NCBI GenBank assembly: GCA_019421385.1
Contig: JAHZFK010000022.1
Coordinates: 1 to 32,000, forward strand
Direction: 5' to 3'
DNA length: 32,000 nt
Origin: Clostridiales bacterium
Lineage (GTDB): Bacteria; Bacillota; Clostridia; Oscillospirales; Butyricicoccaceae
The position numbers and the translations under genes were made by a program. A model generated the notes under the pieces. It did no database searches and was not told where the DNA came from. It worked only from the letters and a program-made list of their open reading frames with translations. Shown in pieces: positions 10,724 to 32,000 of the stretch; the first letter of the stretch is position 1, and each line of letters opens with the position of its first letter.

Positions 10724-12385
10724 TCACTTTTGCAGCGTCTTGGCAAAGCTGTCCTTGAGCGTAACAATACGATTGAAGCGGCCCTCTTCCCTGTCCTTCA
10801 CATAGTAACCCATGCGGACAAACTGGAAGCGTTCGCCCTCCTTCGCGTCCTTGAGCGACGGCTCCAGCTTGCAGCCCGTCAGCTTTTTCAACGAGTCCGG
10901 ATTGAGATAATCCAGATAATCCGTACCCTCCGGAACGTCGTTGACGTTTTCCAGCGTGAACAGATTGTCGTACAGGTACAGGTCGGCATCCAGCGCGTGC
11001 GCAGCAGATACCCAATGGATCGTACCCTTGACCTTACGGCCATCTGCGGGCATACCGTTGCCTGTCTCGAGATCGGCCGTGCAGCGAATCTCGACGATAT
11101 CACCGTTCTCATCCTTGACAATCTCGTTGCAGCGGACGATATATGCGCCCATCAGGCGCACCTCACCGTCCGGCTTGAGGCGCTGGAACTTCGGAGGCGG
11201 CACCTCGGCAAAATCGCTCTTTTCGATATACAGCTCGCGCGTAAACGGTACCTTGCGTGTGCCTGCATCCTCGTTACGCGGATTGTTCGGCACCTCAAAC
11301 TCCTCGCACTTGTCTTCCGGATAGTTGGTGATGACAAGCTTGATCGGCTCCGTGACCGCCATACGGCGCAGCGCGGTCTCGTTCAGCTCCTCACGGATGC
11401 AGTGCTCCAGCAGCTTGATATCGACTAGAGAATCCGCCTTGGCAACGCCTGCGCGCTGCACGAAGTCCAGAATTGCGCTCGGTGTATAGCCGCGACGGCG
11501 CAGCGCACACAGCGTAGGCATACGCGGGTCATCCCAACCCTCGACGTGCTTTTCAAACACCAGCTGACGCAGGTACCGCTTGGACATAACCGTGTGCGTC
11601 ACATTCAGGCGTGCAAACTCGCGCTGCTTGGGATGGTGCGGCAGCGGGCAGTTGTCCACGACCCACTCGTACAGCGGACGATGGTTCTCGAACTCGATTG
11701 AGCACAGCGAATGCGTGATGCCCTCGATCGCATCCTGAATCGGGTGTGCAAAATCATACAGCGGATAGATGCACCACTTGTCACCCTGACGATGGTGATG
11801 CGCGCGCACGATGCGGTAAATCGCAGGATCACGCAGATTCATGTTCGGGCTTGCCATGTCGATCTTGGCGCGCAGCGTCTTGGAACCGTCCTCGAACTTG
11901 CCTGCACGCATGTCCGCAAACAGCTGCAAATTCTCCTCGACCGAACGGTTACGGTACGGGCTTTCCTTGCCCGGCTCAGTCAAGGAGCCACGGTAAGCGC
12001 GCATTTCCTCCTGCGTCAGATCGTCCACATAGGCCTTGCCATCCTTGATGAGCGCAACCGCGCACTCGTAGCAGGTCTCAAAATAGTCCGAACCGTAGTA
12101 CACGCCGCCCGACGGCTCCTCACCGGTCAGCCACTTGATGTCCTCCCAAATCGAGTCGACATACTCGGTGTCCTCCTTGACCGGGTTGGTATCATCGTAG
12201 CGCAGGTTGAACAGGCCGTCATACTTCTTGCCGATCGACCAGTTAATGAAGATTGCCTTAGCCGAACCGATGTGCAGATAGCCGTTCGGCTCGGGCGGGA
12301 AACGGGTATGAATGCGCTCGTTCAGTCCCGCCGCAATGTCCTCGTCAATGATTTCGGTCAGAAAGTTATTTACATTTTCCATCAT
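10724..12385 (-). CDS. glnS: Glutaminyl-tRNA synthetase
   Basis: 553 aa. It has a HIGH-type motif ([14 protein letters not shown]), a KMSKS-type motif (VMSKR) and the GlnRS C-terminal anticodon-binding barrels. Confidence 0.9.
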
Positions 12386-12412: not shown

Positions 12413-14065
12413 TTAAAGCGCGTTCGCGCAGCGTTCCAGACGCTCCAACACCTTGTCGTGTCCCAGAATGCCCATGACCGTCTGCAAATCGGGCGCGTTC
12501 TGCCGTCCGGCAACCGCCACACGGATGACCATGGAAACATCGCCCACCGCACCCTTGTATGCGGACGGATCAGCCTTGTACGCCTTGGTATCCGCAGCAT
12601 AACCGTGTGCCGATGCGATCTGCTTCATCTTTTCAAAAAAGCCATCCGGCGTGTCGTTTTCGTCAAACATCTGCGCAAAGTCCGCAAGGATCGCCTTGGC
12701 ATCCTCCGCAGACACGCGCTCCGGCATGGTGTAGTCCGGCTGGAACAGTTCGTCAAACATGAAGTCCATATAGCCCTTTGCATCCGACCAGAGCGCCAAA
12801 TCCTTACGCGGTTTCTTGCCGCCGCGTCCGATGGCGAGGTACGCCTTGGAGAAGGCCGGGTCGCGGGTAAGCAGGTCATGGAACGGCTTATCGTTCTGCG
12901 CGCTCCACGACGCAAGATAATCATATACCGTGTCGGCGGACATGCGCGAAATGACGTTCTTGGAAACGTCGTGCAGCTTTTCAATGTCAAACAGCGCGCC
13001 CGAACCACTCATCTTCTTGGTCGAGAACGGGAAATCGTTCATCGGCAGGTCGGGATTGGCGCGCCGCCATTCCTCGAAATTGGAGTTGAGCAGCGTCATT
13101 AGGTACTCGAGCACCGCCGGCACCGGATAACCCTCCTGCTCATAGAAGGTCAGCGCGAGTTCAGGATCCTTGCGCTTGGACAGCTTGCGCTTGCCGCCGG
13201 TCTCGGGGTCGATCTTCATCAGCTGCGCAGTGTGCGCATACTTGGGCGCCTTCCAGCCCATCGCGCGGAACAGCTGCAAATGTACCGGCAGAGTCGCCAG
13301 CCATTCCTCGCCGCGCACGACCACGGTCGTACCCATCAGATGATCGTCCACGACATGCGCGAAGTGATAGGTCGGGATGCCGTCCGACTTGAGGATGACG
13401 ATATCCTGATCGTTCTCGGTGACCTCCATCTTACCCTTGACGAGATCCTCATGGCGGATCTTATTTTCGATGCTGCCCTCCGAACGGAAGCGCACGACAT
13501 AGGGCGTGCCTTTGTTGAGTTCAGCCTGGATATCCTCCATCGGGCGGTCACGCCACACAGCATATTTGCCGTAATAGCCGAAATTCTCCTTGTTGGCCTC
13601 CTGCTGGGCATGTGCCGCCGCAAGTTCCTCCTCCGTGCAGAAGCACGGATAGGCCATACCGCGCTGCACCAGACTCTTGACAAAGGTCTGGTAAATCTGT
13701 GCGCGCTGACTCTGGCGGTACGGGCCATATGCGCCGTTATCGCCGTCGAGCGTTGCGCCCTCGTCAAAGTTCAGGCCGAACGCACGGAACACCTCGATGA
13801 TGGTGCGCACGCCCCCCTCGACCTCGCGCTTTTTGTCGGTATCCTCAATGCGCAGATAGAACACACCGCCCGACTGGTGCGCCAAGCGCTCGTCCACCAG
13901 CGCGCCATACAAATTGCCCAGATGCATGAAGCCCGTCGGACTCGGGCCCATACGGGTCACCTTTGCGCCCTCCGGCAGCGTGCGTTTGGGATAGCGCGCC
14001 TCAATGTCCTCCGGCGTGGTGTTGATATGCGGGAACAGCAGTTCCGCCAAACGGTTATAATCCAT
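12413..14065 (-). CDS. gltX: Glutamyl-tRNA synthetase
   Basis: ATG at 14065 after GGAG; the ORF-track start at 14248 is an extension. It has a HIGH-type motif (PSPTGFMHLGNLYGA) and a KMSKS-type motif (KLSKR). Only 27 nt separate it from glnS. Confidence 0.9.
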   Translation of the reverse strand: MDYNRLAELLFPHINTTPEDIEARYPKRTLPEGAKVTRMGPSPTGFMHLGNLYGALVDERLAHQSGGVFYLRIEDTDKKREVEGGVRTIIEVFRAFGLNFDEGATLDGDNGAYGPYRQSQRAQIYQTFVKSLVQRGMAYPCFCTEEELAAAHAQQEANKENFGYYGKYAVWRDRPMEDIQAELNKGTPYVVRFRSEGSIENKIRHEDLVKGKMEVTENDQDIVILKSDGIPTYHFAHVVDDHLMGTTVVVRGEEWLATLPVHLQLFRAMGWKAPKYAHTAQLMKIDPETGGKRKLSKRKDPELALTFYEQEGYPVPAVLEYLMTLLNSNFEEWRRANPDLPMNDFPFSTKKMSGSGALFDIEKLHDVSKNVISRMSADTVYDYLASWSAQNDKPFHDLLTRDPAFSKAYLAIGRGGKKPRKDLALWSDAKGYMDFMFDELFQPDYTMPERVSAEDAKAILADFAQMFDENDTPDGFFEKMKQIASAHGYAADTKAYKADPSAYKGAVGDVSMVIRVAVAGRQNAPDLQTVMGILGHDKVLERLERCANAL

Positions 14066-14114
14066 TTTGTTCACTCCAACTTCCTTGATGGGTATTTTCG
14101 CCCATGATAGGAAT

Positions 14115-14143
14115 ATTTTATCACAGCGCAACGCGCGGTGCAA
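14115..14143 (-). promoter_or_regulatory. Sigma-A promoter with extended -10 for the gltX-glnS operon
   Basis: Minus strand reads TTGCAC-17 nt-(TGa)TAAAAT. The -35 is the complement of 14138-14143 and the -10 the complement of 14115-14120. The leader is only about 40 nt. Confidence 0.55.
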
Positions 14144-14201
14144 GGCACAAAGCGCATCAATCGACGGCTTCCGCGGCCCCGGTTTTTGACATAGCTGCGC
14201 G

Positions 14202-14243
14202 GGAAAAGGCAAAGCGGCATGGCGCATCTGCCATGCCGCTTTT
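14202..14243 (-). terminator. Terminator ending the apbE operon
   Basis: Stem GCGGCATGGC (14214-14223) / GCCATGCCGC (14230-14239). On the minus strand it is followed by TTTGCCTTTT. Confidence 0.75.
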
Positions 14244-14259
14244 CGCAAGCCCCGCTCCC

Positions 14260-21085: not shown

Positions 21086-21883
21086 TCAGCCATCCAATTC
21101 CTCATGTGCCTGCCGCACGATCTCGCGCAGATCCGGCACGCTGTCCTCTCCCTGCTTCCATAAGTAGCCCAAAAACTCGATGTTCCCTTCCGGCCCCTTA
21201 ATGGGCGAGAACGTGATATCCTGCACGGCGAAGCCTGCCGTGTGCGCATTTTCCACAAACTGCTCGAGCACTTCCATGTGGATCTCCGGCTCGCGCACCA
21301 CGCCTTTTTTGCCGACCTTGCCTTTTCCTGCTTCAAACTGCGGCTTAATCAGACATGCCACACGTCCATTTTCGGTCAGCAAACCGGAAACGACCGGCAG
21401 AACCAGCCGCAAAGAGATAAACGACACGTCGATTACGCACAGGCTGGGCGTTTCCTCAAGCATTTCCGGGGTCACATAGCGAATATTCGTGCGTTCCATA
21501 CACTTGACACGCGGGTCTTGGCGCAGACTCCATGCGAGCTGCCCATAGCCGACGTCAATCGAATAGACCTTGACCGCACCACGGCGCAGCAAGCAATCGG
21601 TAAAACCGCCGGTGGATGCACCCACGTCCATCACGACCAGCCCCGCTGGGTCGATCGAAAAATAGTCGAGCGCTTTCTCGATTTTTTTGCCGCCGCGGGA
21701 GACAAAGGCATTTTCGTTGCCGCGCACTTCCAGCTCGGCATTTTCATCCACCATATCGCCCGCTTTGCCTGCTTTCTGCCCGGCAATGTAGACAATACCT
21801 TCCATTATCGCCGTCTTTGCACGCTCCCGCGAGGGGCAAAGACCTTTTTCAAACAGCAATACATCCAAACGTTTTTTAGCCAA
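21086..21883 (-). CDS. tlyA: TlyA-family 16S/23S rRNA (cytidine-2'-O)-methyltransferase
   Basis: Probable TTG start at 21883 after AAGGGAAAGGAAAA, overlapping the dxs stop by 8 nt. It has an N-terminal S4 domain (KKRLDVLLFEKGLCPSRERAKTAI) and the SAM motif VMDVGASTGGFTD. Confidence 0.82.
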   Translation of the reverse strand: MAKKRLDVLLFEKGLCPSRERAKTAIMEGIVYIAGQKAGKAGDMVDENAELEVRGNENAFVSRGGKKIEKALDYFSIDPAGLVVMDVGASTGGFTDCLLRRGAVKVYSIDVGYGQLAWSLRQDPRVKCMERTNIRYVTPEMLEETPSLCVIDVSFISLRLVLPVVSGLLTENGRVACLIKPQFEAGKGKVGKKGVVREPEIHMEVLEQFVENAHTAGFAVQDITFSPIKGPEGNIEFLGYLWKQGEDSVPDLREIVRQAHEELDG

Positions 21884-23747
21884 GGTCGTTTTCCTTTCCC
21901 TTTCGGTTTTTGATGACAAACGAAGCGATGCCTTCGGCATCAATGCCGCAATGACGGTATACGTCACTCACACCACCGTGCGGCAGAAAACGGTCGCCGG
22001 TATTCAGGCAGTCCACCCGACCATCCCGATGAGCAGCCACCCATTCACCCAAGCCGCCGCTTTCTACAACATCCTCGACGACCACACACCAGCCGGAGAG
22101 CACAGCCTGCTGCTCACAGAAAGCATCCGCCAGTGCATCGCTGATCTCGTTGACCTTATAAACCTGCGCGTGCACACCTTTTTTCTCCAGAATATCCGCT
22201 GCAGCAAGCACTTCATTGACAAGAGCGCCGTGCGTCAGCAGCGTCACCTCTCGGCCTGTCGTTTCATGCACACAGGCAAGCGTCTCGCCTGCCGTATCCT
22301 TTCGGAACGCACCCTCACCGCCGCGCGGATAACGGATCGCGACCGGCCCGTTCTCATGATATAACGCACGCGACATCATACTGCGCAGCTCGGCAAAATT
22401 CGACGGACAGAAAATTTTCACGCCCGGAATGGACCGCAAAAACGCCACATCCAGCACACCGTTGTGCGTTGCGCCATCCGCGCCAACAATGCCTGCACGG
22501 TCAACGCAGAACACGACATGCAGCCCTTCAATCGCCACATCATGCACCATTTGGTCATAGGCGCGCTGCAAAAAGGTCGAATACATCGCGACCACCGGCA
22601 CCAGCCCCTGCGCCGCCATACCGGCCGCCATGGCGACCGCGTGCTCCTCCGCGATGCCAACATCGAAAAAGCGGTCGGGAAAACGGGACGCGAACCGCGT
22701 CAGCCCCGTGCCGGACGGCATTGCCGCCGTGATCGCGCAGATACGCGCATCCTTTTCCGCAAAAGCACACAGTTCACGGCCAAAGCAGGCGGAAAAATCC
22801 TCTTTCTTGCCCGCCTGAAACACACCGGTCAGCGGATCGAACGGAGAAACGCCGTGGTATTTCTCCGGCTCGCGCTCACTTGGCGCATAGCCGCGGCCCT
22901 TTTGCGTCATCACATGCAGCAGCACCGGCTTCTTGATCTTTTTGGCCTGAGAAAGCAGCTCGCATACGCTTTTCAGATCATGCCCATCCACCGGACCAAG
23001 GTAGATGAAACCCATCTGCTCAAACAGAGAGGTCGGCAGCACCAGACGCTTGACGCGCGCCTTGACCCGTGAAATCGCACGCGATACCGCGCCGCCGCCC
23101 GGGATGCGAGCCAAACGCTCCTTCACGCGCGCCTTGGCATGAAGATAACGCGGACTGACACGCAGACGCGACAAATGCCGGCTCAGCCCGCCGACATTCT
23201 GCGCAATGGACATGTTGTTGTCGTTGAGCACCACCAGAAGCGGCTCACCCGAAGTGCCCGCATTGCTGAGCGCCTCATAAGCCATGCCGCCGGTCAGCGC
23301 GCCGTCCCCAATGACGGCAACCACATGATATTTCTGGTTTTTCAGGGTGCGGGCATGTGCCATACCCAGCGCCACCGACACCGAACCCGAAGCATGTCCG
23401 GTCACGCAGGGGTCGGAAATGCTCTCCTCCGGTTTCATGAAACCGGAAAGACCGCCGTATTGCCGCAATGTATCAAAGCGGTCACGGCGGCCGGTCAGAA
23501 TCTTATGGACATAGCTCTGGTGTCCTACATCGTAAATGATGCGGTCACGCGAGGAGTCAAACTCCCGCTCCAGCGCGACAGCCAACTCTACAACACCCAG
23601 ATTGGAGGCCAGATGGCCGCCTGTGCGCGAAACCGAATCGACGATAAATTCGCGCAGTGAAGCGCACAGCACACCGAGCGTGTCATAAGACAATCCGCGC
23701 AGATCCGCGGGGCTTGTAATATTGTCCAGAATTCCGTATCTTTTCAT
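21876..23747 (-). CDS. dxs: 1-deoxy-D-xylulose-5-phosphate synthase
   Basis: ATG at 23747; the ORF-track start at 23840 is an extension. The N-terminus is LDNITSPADLRGL. TPP-binding motifs GHLASNLGVVEL and GDGALTGGMAYEALN are present, with transketolase-like C-terminal domains. Confidence 0.92.
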   Translation of the reverse strand: MKRYGILDNITSPADLRGLSYDTLGVLCASLREFIVDSVSRTGGHLASNLGVVELAVALEREFDSSRDRIIYDVGHQSYVHKILTGRRDRFDTLRQYGGLSGFMKPEESISDPCVTGHASGSVSVALGMAHARTLKNQKYHVVAVIGDGALTGGMAYEALSNAGTSGEPLLVVLNDNNMSIAQNVGGLSRHLSRLRVSPRYLHAKARVKERLARIPGGGAVSRAISRVKARVKRLVLPTSLFEQMGFIYLGPVDGHDLKSVCELLSQAKKIKKPVLLHVMTQKGRGYAPSEREPEKYHGVSPFDPLTGVFQAGKKEDFSACFGRELCAFAEKDARICAITAAMPSGTGLTRFASRFPDRFFDVGIAEEHAVAMAAGMAAQGLVPVVAMYSTFLQRAYDQMVHDVAIEGLHVVFCVDRAGIVGADGATHNGVLDVAFLRSIPGVKIFCPSNFAELRSMMSRALYHENGPVAIRYPRGGEGAFRKDTAGETLACVHETTGREVTLLTHGALVNEVLAAADILEKKGVHAQVYKVNEISDALADAFCEQQAVLSGWCVVVEDVVESGGLGEWVAAHRDGRVDCLNTGDRFLPHGGVSDVYRHCGIDAEGIASFVIKNRKGKENDLG

Positions 23748-23775: not shown

Positions 23776-24393
23776 CTATCTCTTGCTATCCAGCGAAAAC
23801 GGCAGCACCGACAACACCCGTCCGCAAATGGCCAGCACACGGCTGCTAAACGCCATCGCTACACCTTTACCGGCAGCCTTGCCGCCAATGGTCAGCGCCG
23901 AGATCAGGCCGGTGACCAGAAGCGAAACCAGCACCACCTGCACGCCGTTCATCCCGGCTGTAATGTTGGTGACGATCAGTGCCCCTGTTGCACCGGAAAT
24001 GATGCCGCAGATATCACCGACCACGTCGTTGCAAATGCTCGACACCTTTTCCGCATTGCGGGTCATCCACACCGCTTCCTTTGCGCCGCGCACACGGTGC
24101 GCCGCCATGGAATGGAACTCCTTCTCGGTTGCGGATGCCGCGGCAATGCCGATCATATCGAATAGGATGCCCAGCGCGATAAAGAAAAACAGCACCACAA
24201 AGGACAAAATTGTGCCCGCGCTGTTCAGCGCCTCATTCGATATATAGCTCATCACGACCGACAGCACAAAGCTGATCGGCATGATCGTCGCCACCCATTT
24301 GGTATTGATCAGCCGCGGTTTTTGCGGCGGCTGGTTCTTTTTCCTCGGTTTATCGGATGCTTCCAAAAGAATACTCCTTATTGTTAAAACCAT
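23776..24393 (-). CDS. Four-TM integral membrane protein, OapA-like (OLE-associated protein A) by position and topology
   Basis: 205-aa ORF. An alternative TTG start at 24366 has a much better RBS (AAGGAG + 6 nt). Four hydrophobic segments are visible: WVATIMPISFVLSVVMSYI, ILSFVVLFFFIALGILFDMIGIAA, VVGDICGIISGATGALIVTNI and VVLVSLLVTGLISALTIGG. It lies directly between the structured ncRNA region and dxs. Confidence 0.55.
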   Translation of the reverse strand: MVLTIRSILLEASDKPRKKNQPPQKPRLINTKWVATIMPISFVLSVVMSYISNEALNSAGTILSFVVLFFFIALGILFDMIGIAAASATEKEFHSMAAHRVRGAKEAVWMTRNAEKVSSICNDVVGDICGIISGATGALIVTNITAGMNGVQVVLVSLLVTGLISALTIGGKAAGKGVAMAFSSRVLAICGRVLSVLPFSLDSKR

Positions 24394-24419
24394 TCGGTCG
24401 TTGTATGCATATAGAAGTG

Positions 24420-25057
24420 ACGGCAGGCCGAGTTAATCTTGCGGCTTGAGGTTCGGTTGGCTTTCCCCGCGGACTGCCACGCGTCGCCGTCGTGGGGGTT
24501 TCCCATTAAAGTCCGTGCCGGGATGTTACCATCACCGGGACCGAATTGCCACTGAGTCCGCACTGCAATCCTCTGCCTGCCTCATTGCTGAATAGCCTAG
24601 GTGATTTCCACTGCAGGCAACACGATTCTTAGCCTCTTTTGCAGACATGGTTTCAACCGTCAATTCCCGCGTTTTCCTGGCCGGGAAACCGCAGGCGGAT
24701 ACGATATCCACCATGGCCACGCAAGGCAGGCTACACTGCACACAGCGTTTTGGGCACCGCACGGGCCTCCGGCCGCAATGGCCGGCGTATTCCGTGCAGT
24801 CCCCTCCGCACCGCAATACAGGTTTCATCCTGCACCGTAGGGCATCCGTCAATCGAAGCGATGCTATAGGTGCCCCACGCATACAGGTCTCCACGGCAGG
24901 CGGGTCGGTACTTCATGCCATTGAAGCGCGCCCGCAAGCATCCACCCCAAACTGGGCGTAAGAAGCAAACACCAGAGACTTCATCGATATGCCCTTCTAC
25001 GGATTTTTAGGCCCGTCCTGGGAATCGTATGCGCTGACTAGGATACTACGTCACTTA
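24420..25057 (-). ncRNA. Large structured non-coding RNA, OLE-like (ends approximate)
   Basis: A 722-nt gap (24394-25115) has coding-level GC but only Cys/Arg-rich junk frames. Hairpins readable on the minus strand include a GNRA(GUAA)-capped 8-bp hairpin (24518-24538), TTCCCG/CGGGAA (24664-24687), and a perfect CCGGCC/GGCCGG (24769-24785) nested in GCACGG/CCGTGC. A dedicated promoter lies at 25064-25092. The locus ispA-[RNA]-4TM protein-dxs is the published OLE context. Confidence 0.6.
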
Positions 25058-25063
25058 TTTTAT

Positions 25064-25092
25064 ATTTTATCATATAAATCCATCGGATTCAA
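25064..25092 (-). promoter_or_regulatory. Near-consensus extended -10 sigma-A promoter driving the OLE-like RNA
   Basis: Minus strand reads TTGAAT-17 nt-(TGa)TAAAAT. The -35 is the complement of 25087-25092 and the -10 the complement of 25064-25069. It sits in a local AT-rich island just after the ispA stop. Confidence 0.6.
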
Positions 25093-25115
25093 GAAAACCG
25101 CGCAAAAAACCGCAT

Positions 25116-26000
25116 TCAATTCGTCCGATCGGTCAGGCTGCGCGCCAATTCGACGAGAAATGCGCTCTCCGGCCTGCCGGAAACCGCCTGCACCGCCTCG
25201 TCAGTCAGGCTGGCGACCAGCCTGCGGCACTCCTCCATGCCAAGCAGCGCCGGGAAGGTGGATTTTTCGCTCTTTTCGTCCTTGCCGACCGTTTTGCCGA
25301 GCGTGGCGGTGTCACCCTCAATGTCCAGCATATCATCCCGGATCTGGAACGCAAGGCCAAGCTTGTCCCCATAGGTGCGCGCCATATCGAGCGTCTGCGC
25401 GTCGGTTTTGCCCGCCGCAACGCAGCCCAGCTCGCACGCTGCGCGCAGCAGACAGCCGGTCTTGAGGCTTTGCAACAAGCGCAGCTCATCGAGCGAAATT
25501 TTCCGGTGTTCCGCACCCATGTCGAGCACCTGACCGCCGATCATACCATTCATGCCCGCGGCTTGTCCTAAAATGCGGATGCAAGCCAGCACAGTCTCAG
25601 CGGACACGCCCTCAGCTGCCGCCGCCGTCTCAAACGCCGCGGTCAGCAAGCCGTCGCCCGCAAGCACAGCGGTCGCCTCATCAAACGCTTTGTGACAAGT
25701 CGGACGGCCACGGCGCAAATCGTCATTGTCCATACACGGCAGATCGTCGTGGATGAGCGAATAGGTGTGGATCATCTCAAGCGCGCACGCAAATGGCAGC
25801 GCCTTTTGCGTGTCACCGCCGCACAGGCGGCAGAACGCCAGCACGATCACCGGACGCAGGCGCTTGCCGCCCGCCATTGCCGAATATTTGACGGCTTCAA
25901 AGATGCGGTCGTACCCCTCGCCCATCTCGCGGGACAGATATTTCTCCAGCGCAGGCTCAATAACTGCAATATCCGCTTTCAGCTGCTCTGCAAACGTCAT
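25116..26000 (-). CDS. ispA: Farnesyl/geranyl diphosphate synthase (polyprenyl synthetase family)
   Basis: 294 aa. The first Asp-rich motif is LIHDDLPCMDNDDLRRG and the second is FQIRDDMLD. Its ATG overlaps the xseB stop (ATGA). Confidence 0.88.
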   Translation of the reverse strand: MTFAEQLKADIAVIEPALEKYLSREMGEGYDRIFEAVKYSAMAGGKRLRPVIVLAFCRLCGGDTQKALPFACALEMIHTYSLIHDDLPCMDNDDLRRGRPTCHKAFDEATAVLAGDGLLTAAFETAAAAEGVSAETVLACIRILGQAAGMNGMIGGQVLDMGAEHRKISLDELRLLQSLKTGCLLRAACELGCVAAGKTDAQTLDMARTYGDKLGLAFQIRDDMLDIEGDTATLGKTVGKDEKSEKSTFPALLGMEECRRLVASLTDEAVQAVSGRPESAFLVELARSLTDRTN

Positions 26001-26233: not shown

Positions 26234-27509
26234 TGTTCTGTTCCTCCTCGATATCGGTCACGCGGCAATTCGCCGCGCCTTTGGCAAATCGGATATGCAG
26301 GGTATCTCCTGCCTTGAGCATCGCTGCATCGGTGATGACCGCGCCGCGCACACCTTTGTTCGCGACCGCGTAGCCGCGTGCAAGCACGCGCAGCGGGCTA
26401 ATTGCGTCGAGCGTGGCAACCGTCCTTGTAAAGCGCAGACGGCGGCGCTGTACGCCGTCCCGCCCGGCCGCCAGCAAACGGCGGCGCAGCAGGTTCAGCT
26501 TCTGCTCTTCCCGCGCGAGATACGCCGGGAATGCCGCCAGCAAACGGTCAGTCGTCCGGTCGAGCAGCACGCGCTTCTCTTCGATATACCGCGTGGGGCT
26601 GCGCGCTTCCAGCCGCTGCTGCAACGCCTCCAATGTGCGCTGCTTGTGCTGAATCTGCTTATGCGCCGCCGCATGAAGCCGCGTATCCAGCGTGCGCAGG
26701 CTCAGCGCATATTCCGCGCGGTCGGGGACGGCAAGCTCTGCCGCGCCTGACGGCGTGGGCGCACGCAGATCGGCAACAAAGTCCGCAATCGTCACATCCG
26801 GCTCATGGCCGACCGCCGAAATGACCGGAATCTCGGACGCAAAGATCGCCCGCGCGACCGCTTCCTCGTTAAATGCCCACAAGTCCTCCATCGACCCGCC
26901 GCCGCGTCCGCACAGGATGACATCTGCCTCGCCCATCGCGTTGGACAGACCGATCGCCCGCGCGATGCTTTCCGCCGCACCCTGTCCTTGCACCTGTGCA
27001 GGATAGAGCGTGACCTCAGCCAGCGGCCAGCGGCGACCCAGAATACGGATCATATCGCGTACCGCTGCGCCGGTCGGTGAGGTGACGAGCGCAATTTTGC
27101 GCGGCATACGCGGAATCGGCTTTTTATACATCGGGTCAAACAAACCCTCAGCCTGTAATTTGGCTTTGAGTTGCTCGAAAGCTAAATTGAGTGCGCCCGC
27201 GCCGTCCGGAATCACCTCGGAAATATAAAGCTGCACCTGTCCCGTGCGCGGAAACGAGCTGACGCGCGCCCGCACAATGACCTTCATGCCGTTTTCCAGT
27301 CGGAATTTCAGGCGCATCGCGTCCGAGCGGAACATCACCGCGTTGATGGACGCGCCCTCGTCCTTGAGGCTCATATAGTGATGCCCGGAGGAATGCGCCT
27401 TGTAGTTGGATATCTCGCCTTGCACCAGCAGATTGCGGTAACCCGGCACGGTGTCCAGCAATTCTTTGATTTCGTTATTCAGTTGTGTGACCGAATAAAT
27501 CGTACTCAC
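26214..27509 (-). CDS. xseA: Exodeoxyribonuclease VII large subunit
   Basis: 431 aa with a GTG start at 27509 (GTGA overlap with the upstream stop). It has an N-terminal OB fold (YSVTQLNNEIKELL...LVQGEISNYK.HSSGHHYMSLKD) and the catalytic core GRGGGSMEDLWAFNEE. Confidence 0.9.
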   Translation of the reverse strand: MSTIYSVTQLNNEIKELLDTVPGYRNLLVQGEISNYKAHSSGHHYMSLKDEGASINAVMFRSDAMRLKFRLENGMKVIVRARVSSFPRTGQVQLYISEVIPDGAGALNLAFEQLKAKLQAEGLFDPMYKKPIPRMPRKIALVTSPTGAAVRDMIRILGRRWPLAEVTLYPAQVQGQGAAESIARAIGLSNAMGEADVILCGRGGGSMEDLWAFNEEAVARAIFASEIPVISAVGHEPDVTIADFVADLRAPTPSGAAELAVPDRAEYALSLRTLDTRLHAAAHKQIQHKQRTLEALQQRLEARSPTRYIEEKRVLLDRTTDRLLAAFPAYLAREEQKLNLLRRRLLAAGRDGVQRRRLRFTRTVATLDAISPLRVLARGYAVANKGVRGAVITDAAMLKAGDTLHIRFAKGAANCRVTDIEEEQNNGGKDI

Positions 27510-28450
27510 GTTTTGTTCCTTTCATAAAGCCGCGCAGCAAGCACCGCCACGCCGACTGCATTATCGCCCGACAGCACCGGCTCAGCAAACGAGACCCGCT
27601 CCCCGAACGCCTGCTGCATACGCGCACGCAGCACGCGGCTTGCCATCACGCCGCCCGCGCACAAAACCGGGCAATCGTATTGTTTTAGCGCCTGCTCGGT
27701 TGCTTTGATGACCGCATTGGCGACCGTTTCGAGCGTGAACCGCGCCATCTGTGCAGGCTCTGCGGTCTTATGTTTGTTTTCCACCTGATTCTGCATACCG
27801 GATAGCGAAAACCGGCAGTCCGTCACCTTGGGACGATAGCCCTTTTCCGGTTCTGCTTCGACGGCCAGCGCGTCAAGCGCCGCACCCGACGGAAACGGCA
27901 GTCCGAGCAGCACGCCCGCGCGGTCGATCAACTGTCCCGCGGCGAGGTCGGTCGTGCCGCCGATACAGGTGCAGTCCGGCAGGCCATCTGTCCCCGGTAT
28001 TACATACAGCAGCTCGCTCGTTCCGCCCGACAGATGCCACGCGAGGAACGGCTCGTCCAGCAGGTGCAACCGTTCTGCGCTCAGCGCGGCCGCCGCGATA
28101 TGCCCCTGTTGATGCGACACAGCAAAAAGGGGCACAGATAGCAAATGCGCCGCGCTGCGCGCGACGCTCTGACCCGCCAGAAAGCAGGGCATATACGAAC
28201 CCTCGACCGCGCGCGGGCGAGTGCTGACGCCGATGGCGCGCACCTCCCCCTGCGGCAGGGCTTCGATTTTCTCATGCAGATGCACGGTATGCTGAAACAG
28301 CGCATCCGACTGGCGCAAGCCGATTGCGCCGTCCGGCACGGTCAGCAAGCTGCCCTCGTTTTGCCATGCGCCGCTTTCGGCGTCATATATCGCTGCCGAC
28401 GTGCGGTAATTCGAGGTGTCGATCCCCAGAAAACGCTCAGGCATCGGCAT
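27506..28450 (-). CDS. TsaD/Kae1-family (peptidase M22 'glycoprotease') paralogue of unknown role
   Basis: Start at ATG 28450 or 28444, overlapping the nusB 3' end; the ORF-track start at 28642 is an extension. It has an ASKHA-fold N-terminus (FLGIDTSNYRTSAAI), an H-x-x-G-H motif (SHQQGHI), LSGGTSEL and a C-terminal AGGVMASRVLR...GDNAVG. Confidence 0.7.
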   Translation of the reverse strand: MPMPERFLGIDTSNYRTSAAIYDAESGAWQNEGSLLTVPDGAIGLRQSDALFQHTVHLHEKIEALPQGEVRAIGVSTRPRAVEGSYMPCFLAGQSVARSAAHLLSVPLFAVSHQQGHIAAAALSAERLHLLDEPFLAWHLSGGTSELLYVIPGTDGLPDCTCIGGTTDLAAGQLIDRAGVLLGLPFPSGAALDALAVEAEPEKGYRPKVTDCRFSLSGMQNQVENKHKTAEPAQMARFTLETVANAVIKATEQALKQYDCPVLCAGGVMASRVLRARMQQAFGERVSFAEPVLSGDNAVGVAVLAARLYERNKT

Positions 28451-28943
28451 TCTCCGCCGGCGCTGCCGCAGCATCGGCTGCCGGGGCTGCATCTGGCTTG
28501 GTCGCGCGCGCGACCGAACCCAACACACCGTTGATGAAAGCGGCGGCTTCGTCTGTATCGTATACCTTAGCCAGCTCGACCGCTTCGTTGATCGCGGCAC
28601 CCACCGGCACATCTTCCACATAGCGCATCTCGTAAATGGCAAGACGCAGCACCGCTACCGTTATGCGCGACATGCGGCTGATCTTCCAGCCCTTGGAATA
28701 GGCCGTGATCGTCTCGTCCAGTTCGTTCTGATGCGCGGCCACGCCCTTGACCACCGCGCGGATGTACTCAGTCTGCACAGGCGACAGCTTGCCCGCATAC
28801 AGCGCAATATCGCCGCTGATCGAAGCCATAATGGACTCGTCCAGCCGCTCTTCCAAATTTTCGTCCTCAAACTGCTGGAACCCCATCTCAAAAATCAGGT
28901 GCAGCGCAATTTCTCTTGCTTTTGTTCTGCTCATCACACTCAC
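28437..28943 (-). CDS. nusB: Transcription antitermination factor NusB
   Basis: 168 aa. SRTKAREIALHLIFEM and AINEAVELAKVY..DEAAAFINGVLG are NusB hallmarks. The start is ambiguous (GTG 28943, GTG 28937 or ATG 28934) after GGGAGG. It has an Ala/Pro/Asp-rich C-terminal tail. Confidence 0.88.
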   Translation of the reverse strand: MSVMSRTKAREIALHLIFEMGFQQFEDENLEERLDESIMASISGDIALYAGKLSPVQTEYIRAVVKGVAAHQNELDETITAYSKGWKISRMSRITVAVLRLAIYEMRYVEDVPVGAAINEAVELAKVYDTDEAAAFINGVLGSVARATKPDAAPAADAAAAPAENADA

Positions 28944-29083: not shown

Positions 29084-29491
29084 TTATTCCTGCTCCGCAG
29101 GCTGTTCCTCAACCGCCGGTGTAGGCGCAAACGTCACGCCGCCGACATGCACATTGACCTCGGTGACCTTCAGGCCGGTCATGGATTCGACCGAAGACCG
29201 CACGCTCTCCTGCACCTGCTTTGCCACCTCGCAGATGTTGTGGCCGAACAGCGCAAGGAAGCCGATCTCGATCTTGACCGTTCCCTCTTCGCCAATTTCA
29301 ATGCGGACGCCCTTGGAAAGGTTCTTTTTGCTCAAAAAGCTCACGATATCGCTGGTCAGCGTGGAATACAAGCCACTCACGCCTGCGGTTTCCGAAGTAG
29401 CCAGCGCCGCAATGGATGCGACAACATCCTCGGAAATCCGGATGGAACCCTGATCGCTCTCGGTCGACCAATACTCCTTGTGATCCGCCAT
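29084..29491 (-). CDS. Asp23/Gls24-family envelope stress protein (B. subtilis YqhY position)
   Basis: The likely ATG is at 29491, since the GTG at 29500 is too close to the AAGGAG. IRISEDVVASIAALATSETAGVSGL and the overall ~135-aa size are typical of Asp23. Confidence 0.8.
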   Translation of the reverse strand: MADHKEYWSTESDQGSIRISEDVVASIAALATSETAGVSGLYSTLTSDIVSFLSKKNLSKGVRIEIGEEGTVKIEIGFLALFGHNICEVAKQVQESVRSSVESMTGLKVTEVNVHVGGVTFAPTPAVEEQPAEQE

Positions 29492-29514
29492 AGTGCTCAC
29501 TCTCCTTTAAACGG

Positions 29515-29566: not shown

Positions 29567-30097
29567 TTACTCTGCTTCCACGATCTTGACCTGTCCTGCG
29601 GTCATGCCGGTTTCACTGACCACGATGTCCTTGATAACCGTCACATCGGTTGCCTGCAATCCGCCGTCCGGCGGCGCGACAACCACATTCACGCTGCTGT
29701 CCCCAATCATCACGACCGCATCCGCATAGCCTTTGGCGCGAATCAGGCTTTCGATATTTGCCTCGGCAACCGAATCATCCGCGAGCGCCGAGATCTGAGC
29801 CGCCGCCTCATCTTTGGCCGCCTGATCGGCGTCCTCGCTCTCACTCAGCTCGCGCAGCGTACTGACCGCCTCATCGCGCGCCTGCTCGCGGGTCAGACGC
29901 GAGGTGGCGAAATAATCCTCCCCCTCTGTTCCTGCCGTTTCTCCCGCATCCGACCCGGTCGTATCCGCATCGGTCTGCCCTGCCACCAGCAGCTCATCCG
30001 GCGCATCGACATAACTCCAGTTCAAATAAACCGCCGCGCAAAGCAGCAGCGCGATCACACCGTATACCGCGCCGCGTTTCTTGATTTTTTTCATCAC
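29567..30097 (-). CDS. spoIIIAH: Stage III sporulation protein AH
   Basis: 176 aa with an N-terminal TM segment (VYGVIALLLCAAVYL) and an acidic linker. The C-terminal part is YFATSRLTREQARDEA...ANIESLIRAKGYADAVVMIGDSSVNVVV. It is the last gene of the spoIIIA cluster. Confidence 0.8.
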   Translation of the reverse strand: MMKKIKKRGAVYGVIALLLCAAVYLNWSYVDAPDELLVAGQTDADTTGSDAGETAGTEGEDYFATSRLTREQARDEAVSTLRELSESEDADQAAKDEAAAQISALADDSVAEANIESLIRAKGYADAVVMIGDSSVNVVVAPPDGGLQATDVTVIKDIVVSETGMTAGQVKIVEAE

Positions 30098-30128
30098 TGC
30101 TCGCCCTCCTGTATTTGGTTACTATGTT

Positions 30129-30674
30129 TTATGATGCATCGGACATTTTCAGAACCGTAACTTTGTCCGAACCGATGCCGCACACCGTGCTGACCGCCTG
30201 CGTCACCGCCAAACGCACCTGCGCGTTGTCCGCGCCGTCGCACAGAACGACCGCGCCGCGAAACGTCGGCAGCAGATTTTTGACCGTCACAGGCTTTTCC
30301 CCGTAGCTGCCGTCGCTGAGAATGGTCAAATCACTTTCGTAGCTTTGACTGCTGTCCACCCCGGTGGTCTGACGGGTGTTGACCGCGTAAACCGCTTCGC
30401 CGCTCTCCTCGAGCGACAGCATCAGTTCAACCCGCCCCACGCCATCCACCGCAGCCAGCTTGTCGCACAGCGCTTGCTCAAACGCGGCAAGGTCGAATGC
30501 AGATGGCTCGGCAGACGTATCCGATGCCACAGCCTCCTCCTTTGCACCGCGCCCGCCCGAAGCCAGCAGCAGCACCCCTGCCAGCAGCACAATCAGCACC
30601 GCGCGGTATTTGACCGCGAGCGGTACGATCTTTTGCTGCGCAGCACACAGCCACACCTTCCATTGTTCTTTCAT
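30129..30674 (-). CDS. spoIIIAG: Stage III sporulation protein AG
   Basis: ATG at 30674 (ATGA overlap with spoIIIAF). It has one TM segment and the C-terminal ring-building motif GEKPVTVKNLLPTFRGAVVLCDGADNAQVRLAVTQAVSTV.GI...KV.VLKM. Confidence 0.8.
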   Translation of the reverse strand: MKEQWKVWLCAAQQKIVPLAVKYRAVLIVLLAGVLLLASGGRGAKEEAVASDTSAEPSAFDLAAFEQALCDKLAAVDGVGRVELMLSLEESGEAVYAVNTRQTTGVDSSQSYESDLTILSDGSYGEKPVTVKNLLPTFRGAVVLCDGADNAQVRLAVTQAVSTVCGIGSDKVTVLKMSDAS

Positions 30675-31153
30675 TGCGCCACCCACTCCTGTCTGTCCGC
30701 ATCCACACCGCACCCCTCGGTCACCAGCGTTTTCAGTTCATCCAGCCGCGCCGCATCCGTGCTTTGATAATACACCGTTACCTTTCCCACCTGCAAAATC
30801 CCGTTTTCGTCGTTCTCCATTGTCACATGTACTGAACAGTCGAACCCCTTCGCCTGCGCACTGCTCTCGAGCGCGTCCGCAATACTGGCCGCGATCGTGC
30901 TCATGGTCGTCTGCGCGTTTTGCTCCTGTATCGCATCCACGTCAACGCCCGCAAGTGCGCCGTCACGGATGCCGTCCCAACCCGTCAGGCGCAGCCCCGC
31001 CAACGGCTGGAGCAGCGCCAGCAGCATGAGCAGCCCCGCCGCCAGCTTAACGATCTCGCGCAGCGCGCCACCCTCCACCACACGCAGCGCCACCGCGGAC
31101 GCCACGCCCGCCAGCGTGACACGCAGCAAAATGGTATGAAACAATTCACTCAT
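30671..31153 (-). CDS. spoIIIAF: Stage III sporulation protein AF
   Basis: ATG at 31153 (ATGA overlap with spoIIIAE). It has two N-terminal TM segments followed by a soluble domain. Its position between AE and AG supports the call. Confidence 0.75.
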   Translation of the reverse strand: MSELFHTILLRVTLAGVASAVALRVVEGGALREIVKLAAGLLMLLALLQPLAGLRLTGWDGIRDGALAGVDVDAIQEQNAQTTMSTIAASIADALESSAQAKGFDCSVHVTMENDENGILQVGKVTVYYQSTDAARLDELKTLVTEGCGVDADRQEWVAQ

Positions 31154-32000
31154 ATTGGCTTCACCATCGCAACCACATAAACCAGCTCCAAATACAGAAT
31201 CAGACAGCAGGTGCTCAGCATTCCGAGCAGCAGACCGAAGCCCGTGCTCACCCCTTCCAGCATCTGCCGCAGACTGTTCGAGCAAAGCGGCGAAAGCACC
31301 GCCGCGCCCGCTTTATAGCACAAGTAGCTTGCGCCCACGCGCAGGAATGGAATGAGGCAGATCGCCGTCACGCACAGCATACCGAATACGCCGATCGAGC
31401 TGCGCAGCAGTGCCGCGCCGGAAAGCACGGTTTCGGTCGCGTCCGAAATCACGCCGCCGACCACAGGCACCGCACCTGAAACCGCGAATTTCGCTGTTTT
31501 GAGCGCCATGCGGTCCACGCTACCCGATACCCCGCCCGCAATGGTCAGATATGCCGTGAACACAGTCAGGATCAGCTTGAGCGCCCCCGAAGTCAATCCC
31601 TTGATGCCGTCCGCGATGCCGTGCAGCATACCGTTGCCGGTCGCCGCATCCACCGCAACCACCGCGAGATAGGCGCAAGCCGCAGGCACCAGCAGCACAT
31701 TGATGAGCCGAATCACCAGATCGAACACCACCATCGTCGCCACCTGCAAAGCAGTCGCCGTTGCGGCGTTGCCGCCTGCTGCCAGAACGGTTGCCAATAC
31801 CGGCTGCAGCGTGCCGGAAAACAGGCTGATCTCGGAAAGCGTTTCGCGGCACAGCGCGAGCACGCCGGTGAAATCCTGCAGCAGCACCGCCGCACACCCC
31901 AACGTCCCCGCCATATCGATCCACGCATCCGCCGCACCGCCCGCCGCCGCGGAAAAGCCCCGCCCCGCTGCGGTCAGCACCACCACGATTGCCACCCGTA
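31150..32000 (-). CDS. spoIIIAE: Stage III sporulation protein AE (5' end outside the window)
   Basis: The reading frame is open to the window edge. It is polytopic, with FAVSGAVPVVGGVISDATETVLSGAALLRSSIGVFGM typical of SpoIIIAE. Confidence 0.8.
   Translation of the reverse strand, partial: RVAIVVVLTAAGRGFSAAAGGAADAWIDMAGTLGCAAVLLQDFTGVLALCRETLSEISLFSGTLQPVLATVLAAGGNAATATALQVATMVVFDLVIRLINVLLVPAACAYLAVVAVDAATGNGMLHGIADGIKGLTSGALKLILTVFTAYLTIAGGVSGSVDRMALKTAKFAVSGAVPVVGGVISDATETVLSGAALLRSSIGVFGMLCVTAICLIPFLRVGASYLCYKAGAAVLSPLCSNSLRQMLEGVSTGFGLLLGMLSTCCLILYLELVYVVAMVKPI

Follow-up and report, generated by a model that had tools for sequence, protein, structure and literature searches.

The main finding of this work was the identification of an ole gene in a stretch of 32,000 nucleotides (nt) from a Clostridiales bacterium (contig JAHZFK010000022.1, positions 1 to 32,000; hereafter the window). 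On the minus strand, the region between ispA and oapA holds ole, here from an Agathobaculum species; its product is OLE (ornate, large, extremophilic) RNA in the canonical, full-length form, an assignment against which we found no evidence and that we regard as practically certain. A second finding was that this copy lacks 13 nt that its aligned relatives keep, in the part of the RNA contacted by the proteins OapC and OapA, probably as the result of a genuine and recent deletion.

Identification of the ole gene

Scanning of the whole window with the Rfam covariance models returned only one match that reached its gathering score, and this match was OLE (RF01071), at 25070-24401 on the minus strand. 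It scored 417.1 bits (E-value 2.1e-119) against a gathering score of 50 bits for this family, and it covered positions 1-616 of the 616 of the model over 670 nt, without truncation. Since this model test is decisive, we assign the region to ole. A first-pass annotation, made from the letters alone, had taken the region for an OLE representative that the Rfam model should recover on the minus strand, and the end-to-end match confirmed this expectation. Its view that the helices make sense on the minus strand was equally justified, as the covariance-model match is confined to that strand; the folding energy is -268.9 kcal/mol (z-score -2.9) for the minus strand versus -241 kcal/mol (z-score -2.3) for the plus strand.

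The same RNA, with scores of 410-476 bits, occupies the same place upstream of oapA in 19 of 20 related loci. Near-invariant blocks across 43 full-length OLE genes of the family-level group (the window and 42 relatives, which also make up the covariation alignment described below) include GUAGCCUGCCUUG, CUGCAAAAGAGGCUAAG and CCAACCGAACCU. The protein encoded by oapA shares 99% identity with its counterpart in a metagenome-assembled genome of an uncultured Agathobaculum, 81-95% with the proteins of named Agathobaculum species and about 60% with the Butyricicoccus and Intestinibacillus homologues. Judged from these protein identities, and from flanks whose closest counterparts likewise come from Agathobaculum metagenome-assembled genomes and isolates, the host is a species of Agathobaculum; it is a strict anaerobe of the gut within Bacillota, in a genus which we take to belong to the class Clostridia.

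OLE has already been described in the literature as a family, with its structure, its gene context and its occurrence in anaerobic gut Bacillota, and an annotation based on Rfam would label the region. A survey across GTDB reported 2,822 OLE hits in Bacillota (PMC11332333). The text of one supplementary file of that survey (PMC11332333) makes no mention of Agathobaculum, Butyricicoccaceae, Butyricicoccus or Oscillospirales. Our literature search gave no paper linking OLE RNA with any of these four names.

Secondary structure and covariation

The Rfam structure was projected onto the alignment of 43 genes by way of the cmscan alignment of L007, an intact relative. It comprises 156 pairs in 17 helices, and 88.8% of the cells hold standard pairs, against 37-44% in slid controls in which the partner was moved by 1-3 columns. 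Compensatory double changes were found at 58 pairs, compared to 14-20 in the slid controls, and none of 500 shuffles matched the observed pairing value. Covariation among related loci, which the first-pass annotation had put forward as a check, therefore supports the helices. The features of the RNA are as follows, with coordinates of the window.

24401 to 25070, minus strand: OLE RNA gene, full-length type (RF01071, 417.1 bits, and covariation); structured core from P1 at 25055 to 24416
25049 to 25055, minus strand: 5' strand of P1, AGUGACG, pairing with 24422-24416 (CGUCACU); outside the Rfam structure line
25022 to 25030, minus strand: 5' strand of P3, AUACGAUUC, pairing with 24628-24620 (GAAUCGUGU); outside the Rfam structure line
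24998 to 25017, minus strand: P4 hairpin with the A-rich loop CUAAAAAU at 25011-25004 (cmscan alignment)
24937 to 24978, minus strand: P4a, a long hairpin with loop GCCCA; its basal 5 bp are without their 3' strand in this copy
24936 to 24940, minus strand: junction of the 13-nt deletion (GGAGGUUAAGGCU, equivalently GCUGGAGGUUAAG), with a GCU direct repeat on both sides
24895 to 24935, minus strand: P5/P5.1 hairpin, GCGGG...CUUCA AUGGCA UGAAG...CCCGC; base of P5 truncated by the deletion
24829 to 24887, minus strand: P6, a long hairpin with compensatory changes in 9 of 17 pairs
24736 to 24821, minus strand: P7/P8 hairpin, with a lineage-specific tip extension of 61 nt at 24808-24748 (4 nt in the Rfam model)
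24632 to 24727, minus strand: P9, which the Rfam structure line shows as three nested helices; compensatory changes in 15 of the 20 distal pairs
24422 to 24611, minus strand: 3' domain (domain 2, P10-P15), from the cmscan alignment and covariation

Both P1 and P3, although outside the Rfam structure line, are helices of the published OLE model. In our alignment, 99% of the P1 cells are paired with compensatory changes in 4 of 7 pairs, and 97.7% of the P3 cells with compensatory changes in 6 of 9 pairs; jointly, 98.3% of the cells are paired and 10 of 16 pairs are compensated. P3 has been proposed as a membrane-spanning helix (PMC12265935). The A-rich loop of P4, which is the RNA-RNA dimer contact B1 in the structures obtained by cryo-electron microscopy (cryo-EM; PMC12286853, PMC12265935), is invariant in the 43 genes. 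At the tip of P9, the loop CGGCCA (24683-24678) has a palindromic GGCC; in the published structures the distal P9 helix is P9.3, and its palindromic GGCC loop forms the kissing-loop dimer contact B3 (PMC12286853). P13, the OapB-binding site (PMC12265935), lies at 24538-24518 as CCGGUGAUG-GUAA-CAUCCCGG, closed by a GNRA tetraloop.

Four hairpins picked out by eye in the first-pass annotation correspond to elements of this structure: the GUAA tetraloop hairpin at 24518-24538 is P13, the 6-bp hairpin at 24687-24664 is the tip of P9, the CTTCA/TGAAG stem inside GCGGG/CCCGC (24935-24900) is P5/P5.1 of the OLE consensus, and the CCGGCC/GGCCGG hairpin nested in GCACGG/CCGTGC falls within the P7/P8 extension (24785-24769 and 24797-24759, respectively). 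The long-range 8-bp pairing that it also suggested did not survive as a conserved helix. The complementarity of 25034-25027 with 24884-24877 exists in the sequence of the window, but we rejected the helix, for which 83.6% of the cells are paired against 83.1% in shuffles, with 99 of 500 shuffles equalling it; it would moreover compete with P3 for its 5' strand and with P6 for its 3' strand, both of which covary.

Across Agathobaculum, Butyricicoccus and Intestinibacillus, the tip extension of P7/P8 ranges in length from zero to about 80 nt, and its sequence is highly variable. Local stems are kept in it, and the GCGCGG/CCGCGC of L013 is a compensated variant of GCACGG/CCGUGC.

When compared with the known full-length OLE RNAs (the ole of Halalkalibacterium halodurans and the RNAs of Clostridium acetobutylicum and C. 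botulinum solved by cryo-EM), the RNA of the window shares the end-to-end model match, the conserved blocks, helices P1 and P3-P9 and the 3' domain including P13, as well as the A-rich L4, the GGCC loop L9 and the GNRA-capped P13. It also shares an oapA directly downstream, the ispA/dxs/xseAB/nusB/argR/recN neighbourhood and a Bacillota anaerobe as host. It differs from them in three respects, namely the 61 nt added at the P7/P8 tip, an extension that is genus-wide and of variable sequence, a promoter-like site of its own directly upstream rather than a polycistronic precursor alone, and the loss of 13 nt (base of P4a, J4a/5 and base of P5), which concerns this copy only.

A 13-nt deletion in the OapC and OapA contact region

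The first-pass annotation was right about the family of this copy, although the 13-nt deletion had gone unnoticed in it. The window reads GGAUGCU/UGCGGG where the other 42 sequences of the alignment read GGAUGCU-GGAGGUUAAGGCU-UGCGGG, and the 13 deleted columns are at least 90% conserved in these 42 sequences. Three pieces are lost with it: GGAGG, which forms the 3' side of the five pairs at the base of P4a (where the cmscan alignment marks NC 'vvvvv'), UUAA from J4a/5, and the opening bases of the P5 5' strand. Consequently, the window is without the OapC site, the kink-turn strand UUAAGG that J4a/5 contributes at the base of P5, whereas 42 of 42 relatives keep it. This loss is a lesion in one copy and no ground for removing it from the OLE family. 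Because of the deletion, the window scores about 38 bits under L007, an intact relative with 93% identity (417 versus 455 bits).

Over 6885 nt, the window agrees at 100% with ENA metagenome scaffold ERZ28596076 scaffold_827, from which it probably derives. The Logan contig L006 shows 0 mismatches to the window over 1705 aligned nt, yet the 13 nt are present in it, and they are intact in two more contigs that encode an identical OapA. An exact search of metagenome contigs for the deletion junction gave 0 matches, while the intact allele, searched as a control, was found in 75 contigs, mostly from the human gut. Among contigs encoding identical IspA and OapA, the deletion occurs only on the window's own contig. 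Since the relatives, L006 and the metagenome contigs are all intact, the deletion is private to one assembly and very recent. Its GCU-flanked pattern is consistent with replication slippage.

The elements removed are well characterized in other OLE RNAs. J4a/5 forms a major part of the OapC-binding kink-turn, and in H. halodurans the mutation C85A abolishes both OapC binding and OLE function (PMC9723947). The cryo-EM structures place the kink-turn at J4a/5, at the base of P5 (PMC12286853), and one of the two sites to which OapA has been mapped lies in P4a (PMC12265935). With the 13 nt put back, RNAfold predicts P4a, P5 and P6 as in the consensus (-74.2 kcal/mol), whereas the allele of the window is predicted to refold (-63.7 kcal/mol), with the orphaned P4a strand GUCUCU paired to GGAGAC of J5/6. 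These two segments, at 24973-24978 and 24888-24893 of the minus strand, are complementary, and the second one lies in the conserved J5/6.

We therefore hypothesize, by analogy with H. halodurans, that a genuine recent deletion has crippled the OapC and OapA contact region of this copy, a reading that we consider probable. Since single-base mutations in the kink-turn inactivate the H. halodurans complex, a defective or strongly weakened recent allele is the most likely outcome. Such an allele can be tolerated, since OLE is dispensable under benign conditions. The comparison with the C85A kink-turn mutant of the H. halodurans ole (Lyon et al. 2022) concerns the same element, the OapC kink-turn built from J4a/5 at the base of P5. 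C85A, however, is an engineered single-base change with a measured loss of binding and function, whereas the window carries a natural deletion of 13 nt known from sequence.

Several points weigh against a defective allele. The deletion occurs in one assembly only and may be an artefact of assembly or library; the oapA gene is undamaged and does not differ from the oapA of strains whose ole is intact, so that decay has no second, independent sign; and H. halodurans is the only organism in which dependence on OapC is known. Some natural OLE variants without P7/P8 or without the OapB site are presumed to be functional. In addition, expression, transcript ends and membrane association are properties that we infer for the OLE RNA of the window by analogy.

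Alternative explanations of the deletion

The organism may instead have an intact canonical OLE, the deletion being an artefact of assembly or library preparation or a minority variant. We judge this unlikely, but it ranks second after a genuine deletion because one assembly shows the deletion. OLE is so conserved in co-resident species that three independent metagenome contigs with 99.9-100% identity to the window (L003, L004 and L005) end at window positions 25004, 25004 and 24982, and the assembly graph must be complex here because these other assemblies break about 50 nt into OLE. On the other hand, a de Bruijn assembler would need reads spanning the junction, and a microhomology of 3 nt should not give such k-mers by chance; the GCU-flanked pattern fits a genuine slippage deletion during replication, and elsewhere the contig matches independent contigs at 100% identity. 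The ends of L003-L005 lie about 50-70 nt into an OLE block that is invariant between species, so that short-read assemblies seem to break here because the conserved RNA behaves as a repeat shared between genomes.

If the deletion is real, the window would hold a natural ole allele, from a human-gut commensal, that lacks both the kink-turn for OapC and the base of P4a, representing either a first step of loss or an OLE that works without the OapC contact; we hold this proposal to be improbable. We also think it improbable that the deleted allele is a functional natural variant of OLE, in which the kink-turn and OapC contact would be dispensable or replaced by the GUCUCU-GGAGAC pairing. RNAfold does predict this alternative 6-bp helix, and reduced natural OLE RNAs occur in gut clades without OapB and OapC (PMC11332333). 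Nevertheless, the 13 nt must be under selection in the clade because they are conserved in 42 relatives, at 90% or more, and present in 75 metagenome contigs; the deleted allele is private to one contig, and a single point mutation in the kink-turn is sufficient to abolish function in H. halodurans (PMC9723947). The reduced OLE RNAs of uncultured gut Bacillota resemble the copy of the window in being reduced, but in them P7, P8 and P9 are short or absent and the OapB site is gone, and these features are fixed clade-wide. The window keeps all those elements, and what it misses, the kink-turn strand, is a peculiarity of one contig and not a feature of a clade.

Promoter, transcription unit and reading frames

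The gap that holds ole is real: ispA ends at 25116 and the next plausible gene, oapA, has its TTG start at 24366, with AAGGAG shortly before it (24380-24375), whereas the mechanical call placed an ATG at 24393. The guanine-cytosine content of the RNA region is 0.558 versus 0.568 for the whole window, in agreement with the long non-coding gap of coding-level composition that the first-pass annotation had described. It had also pointed to a near-consensus extended -10 promoter firing into the region, and this site was recovered as follows.

25064 to 25092, minus strand: sigma-70-type promoter with extended -10, TTGAAT, 17 nt, TG-n-TAAAAT (9 of 12 matches, TG present)

Both hexamers and the TG are kept in six Agathobaculum relatives while the sequence of the spacer diverges, which is the pattern of a real promoter. 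The first 13 nt or so of the OLE match overlap the -10 box, and transcription would start at about 25058-25056, 1-3 nt before P1.

No terminator-like site was found between the OLE RNA and oapA, and the ribosome-binding site of oapA lies 36 nt past the end of P1; therefore, co-transcription with oapA is likely. This arrangement could also suit a long structured 5' leader regulating oapA-dxs in cis, with no stand-alone RNA gene. We find that reading very improbable, as the RNA belongs fully to the OLE family, whose H. halodurans representative is an abundant discrete RNA, bound by OapA, OapB and OapC, that acts in trans as a particle (PMC12265935), and as in L035 about 800 nt (L035 1695-2500), including an open reading frame (ORF) of 83 amino acids (aa), separate ole from oapA. 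A different exception is L034 ('Clostridiaceae bacterium strain 9'), with no OLE within 1.1 kb upstream of oapA (L034 1-1100) and other ORFs instead. Because of these two loci, the adjacency of ole and oapA is not absolute in the group.

The description of the region as ORF-free in the first-pass annotation is not literally correct, since a mechanical ORF of 120 aa exists at 24894-24532 on the minus strand, but its non-coding character stands. That the region encodes a protein, through this ORF or through one of 40 aa (24506-24384, minus strand; L001 4495-4617) that is called as a gene in public assemblies and lies within the OLE 3' domain, is so improbable as to be negligible: the frames are open in only 3 of 43 and 26 of 43 relatives, respectively (the shorter being broken in 17 of 43), on which grounds we rejected both, the substitutions track base-pairing and not codon structure, and public annotation records no protein-family match for the 40-aa product. 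The 40-aa call is most likely false and caused by the RNA gene having been left unannotated.

Gene neighbourhood and the OapA protein

The genes surrounding ole are all on the minus strand, with spoIIIAE, AF, AG and AH, an Asp23/YqhY-family gene, nusB, a divergent TsaD-like gene, xseA, xseB and ispA on one side and oapA, dxs, tlyA, nadK, argR and recN following ole on the other. This order agrees with the published list of OLE neighbours and gene associations (PMC12265935). The first-pass annotation was correct about the xseA-xseB-ispA...dxs-tlyA-nadK-argR-recN string; the RNA, however, lies between ispA and oapA and does not adjoin dxs.

25116 to 26000, minus strand: ispA (farnesyl diphosphate synthase; NF045485, 335 bits), upstream neighbour
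23776 to 24366, minus strand: oapA, membrane protein of 196 aa, TTG start 7 nt after AAGGAG (24380-24375)
21876 to 23747, minus strand: dxs, downstream of oapA; start according to the public call of 623 aa (mechanical ORF start at 23840)

The TTG start of oapA is the same as that used in public assemblies. The predicted protein has four hydrophobic segments (approximately residues 24-43, 52-78, 115-135 and 141-162 of 196, by Kyte-Doolittle analysis only), a basic loop between segments 2 and 3, and one DxxxD motif, D114-V-V-G-D118, that is invariant in 52 of 52 homologous loci. It also matches the CNNM domain (PF01595) weakly, over residues 67-197, with 20.7 bits (E-value 3.6e-4), under the cut-off of 28.4 bits. 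Four transmembrane segments, DxxxD and weak CNNM similarity are the hallmarks described for OapA (PMC11332333), and on these sequence features the 196-aa protein is the product of oapA. NCBIfam offers no OapA model, and a sequence search of the PDB with the protein gave no match. Metal-ion transporters of the MpfA/CorB/CNNM type share with it the weak similarity in the CNNM domain, as reported for OapA, but OapA differs in having four transmembrane segments and DxxxD, in being without CBS and CorC domains and in its Pfam score, which is under the family cut-off (20.7 versus 28.4). General family scans gave no candidate for oapB or oapC in the window, and no search of the genome for these two genes was made; in H. 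halodurans they presumably are likewise not near ole.

Some further genes of the window were observed. With a score of 113.9 bits against a TsaD cut-off of 296 bits, the TsaD/Kae1-like protein encoded between nusB and xseA (27506-28642, minus strand; 312 aa as called publicly) appears to be a divergent paralogue and not the housekeeping TsaD. The Asp23/YqhY-family gene (29084-29500) and spoIIIAE-AH (29567-31995), all on the minus strand, lie just upstream of nusB; yqhY is one of the genes most strongly associated with ole, and the neighbours of ole have been linked to sporulation among other processes (PMC12265935). Farther away, two class-I aminoacyl-tRNA synthetase genes of the Glu/Gln type stand in tandem on the minus strand (10724-12385 and 12413-14248), one with anticodon-binding domains of the GlnRS type and the other with a domain of the GluRS type.

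Proposed function and significance

A function for the particle can be proposed from the published work on H. halodurans and from the Clostridium cryo-EM structures. The OLE RNA would dimerize through the A-rich loop of P4, the loops of P5.1 and P6.1 and the GGCC loop of P9, and dimers of OapA would tether it at the membrane, possibly through the membrane. OapB would bind P13 and OapC would bind a kink-turn built from J4a/5, while bS21 would be a further partner, as published studies indicate. The particle would help the cell to cope with excess Mg2+, cold, alcohols and poor carbon sources.

With regard to annotation, the locus is one further canonical OLE representative; it deserves the label ole, and we recommend removal of the 40-aa gene called within it. 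OLE is also so extremely conserved from species to species that gut metagenome assemblies fragment at this place. OLE is among the most intriguing large bacterial RNAs, being dimeric and membrane-associated, and it may span the membrane. If the deletion is true, this copy would be a natural mutant of the OapC/OapA contact region, with a wild-type sister that is otherwise identical over 1.7 kb, and the pair, of use to studies of OLE function in gut anaerobes, would provide natural genetic material for finding out which contacts are important to the OLE particle beyond H. halodurans.

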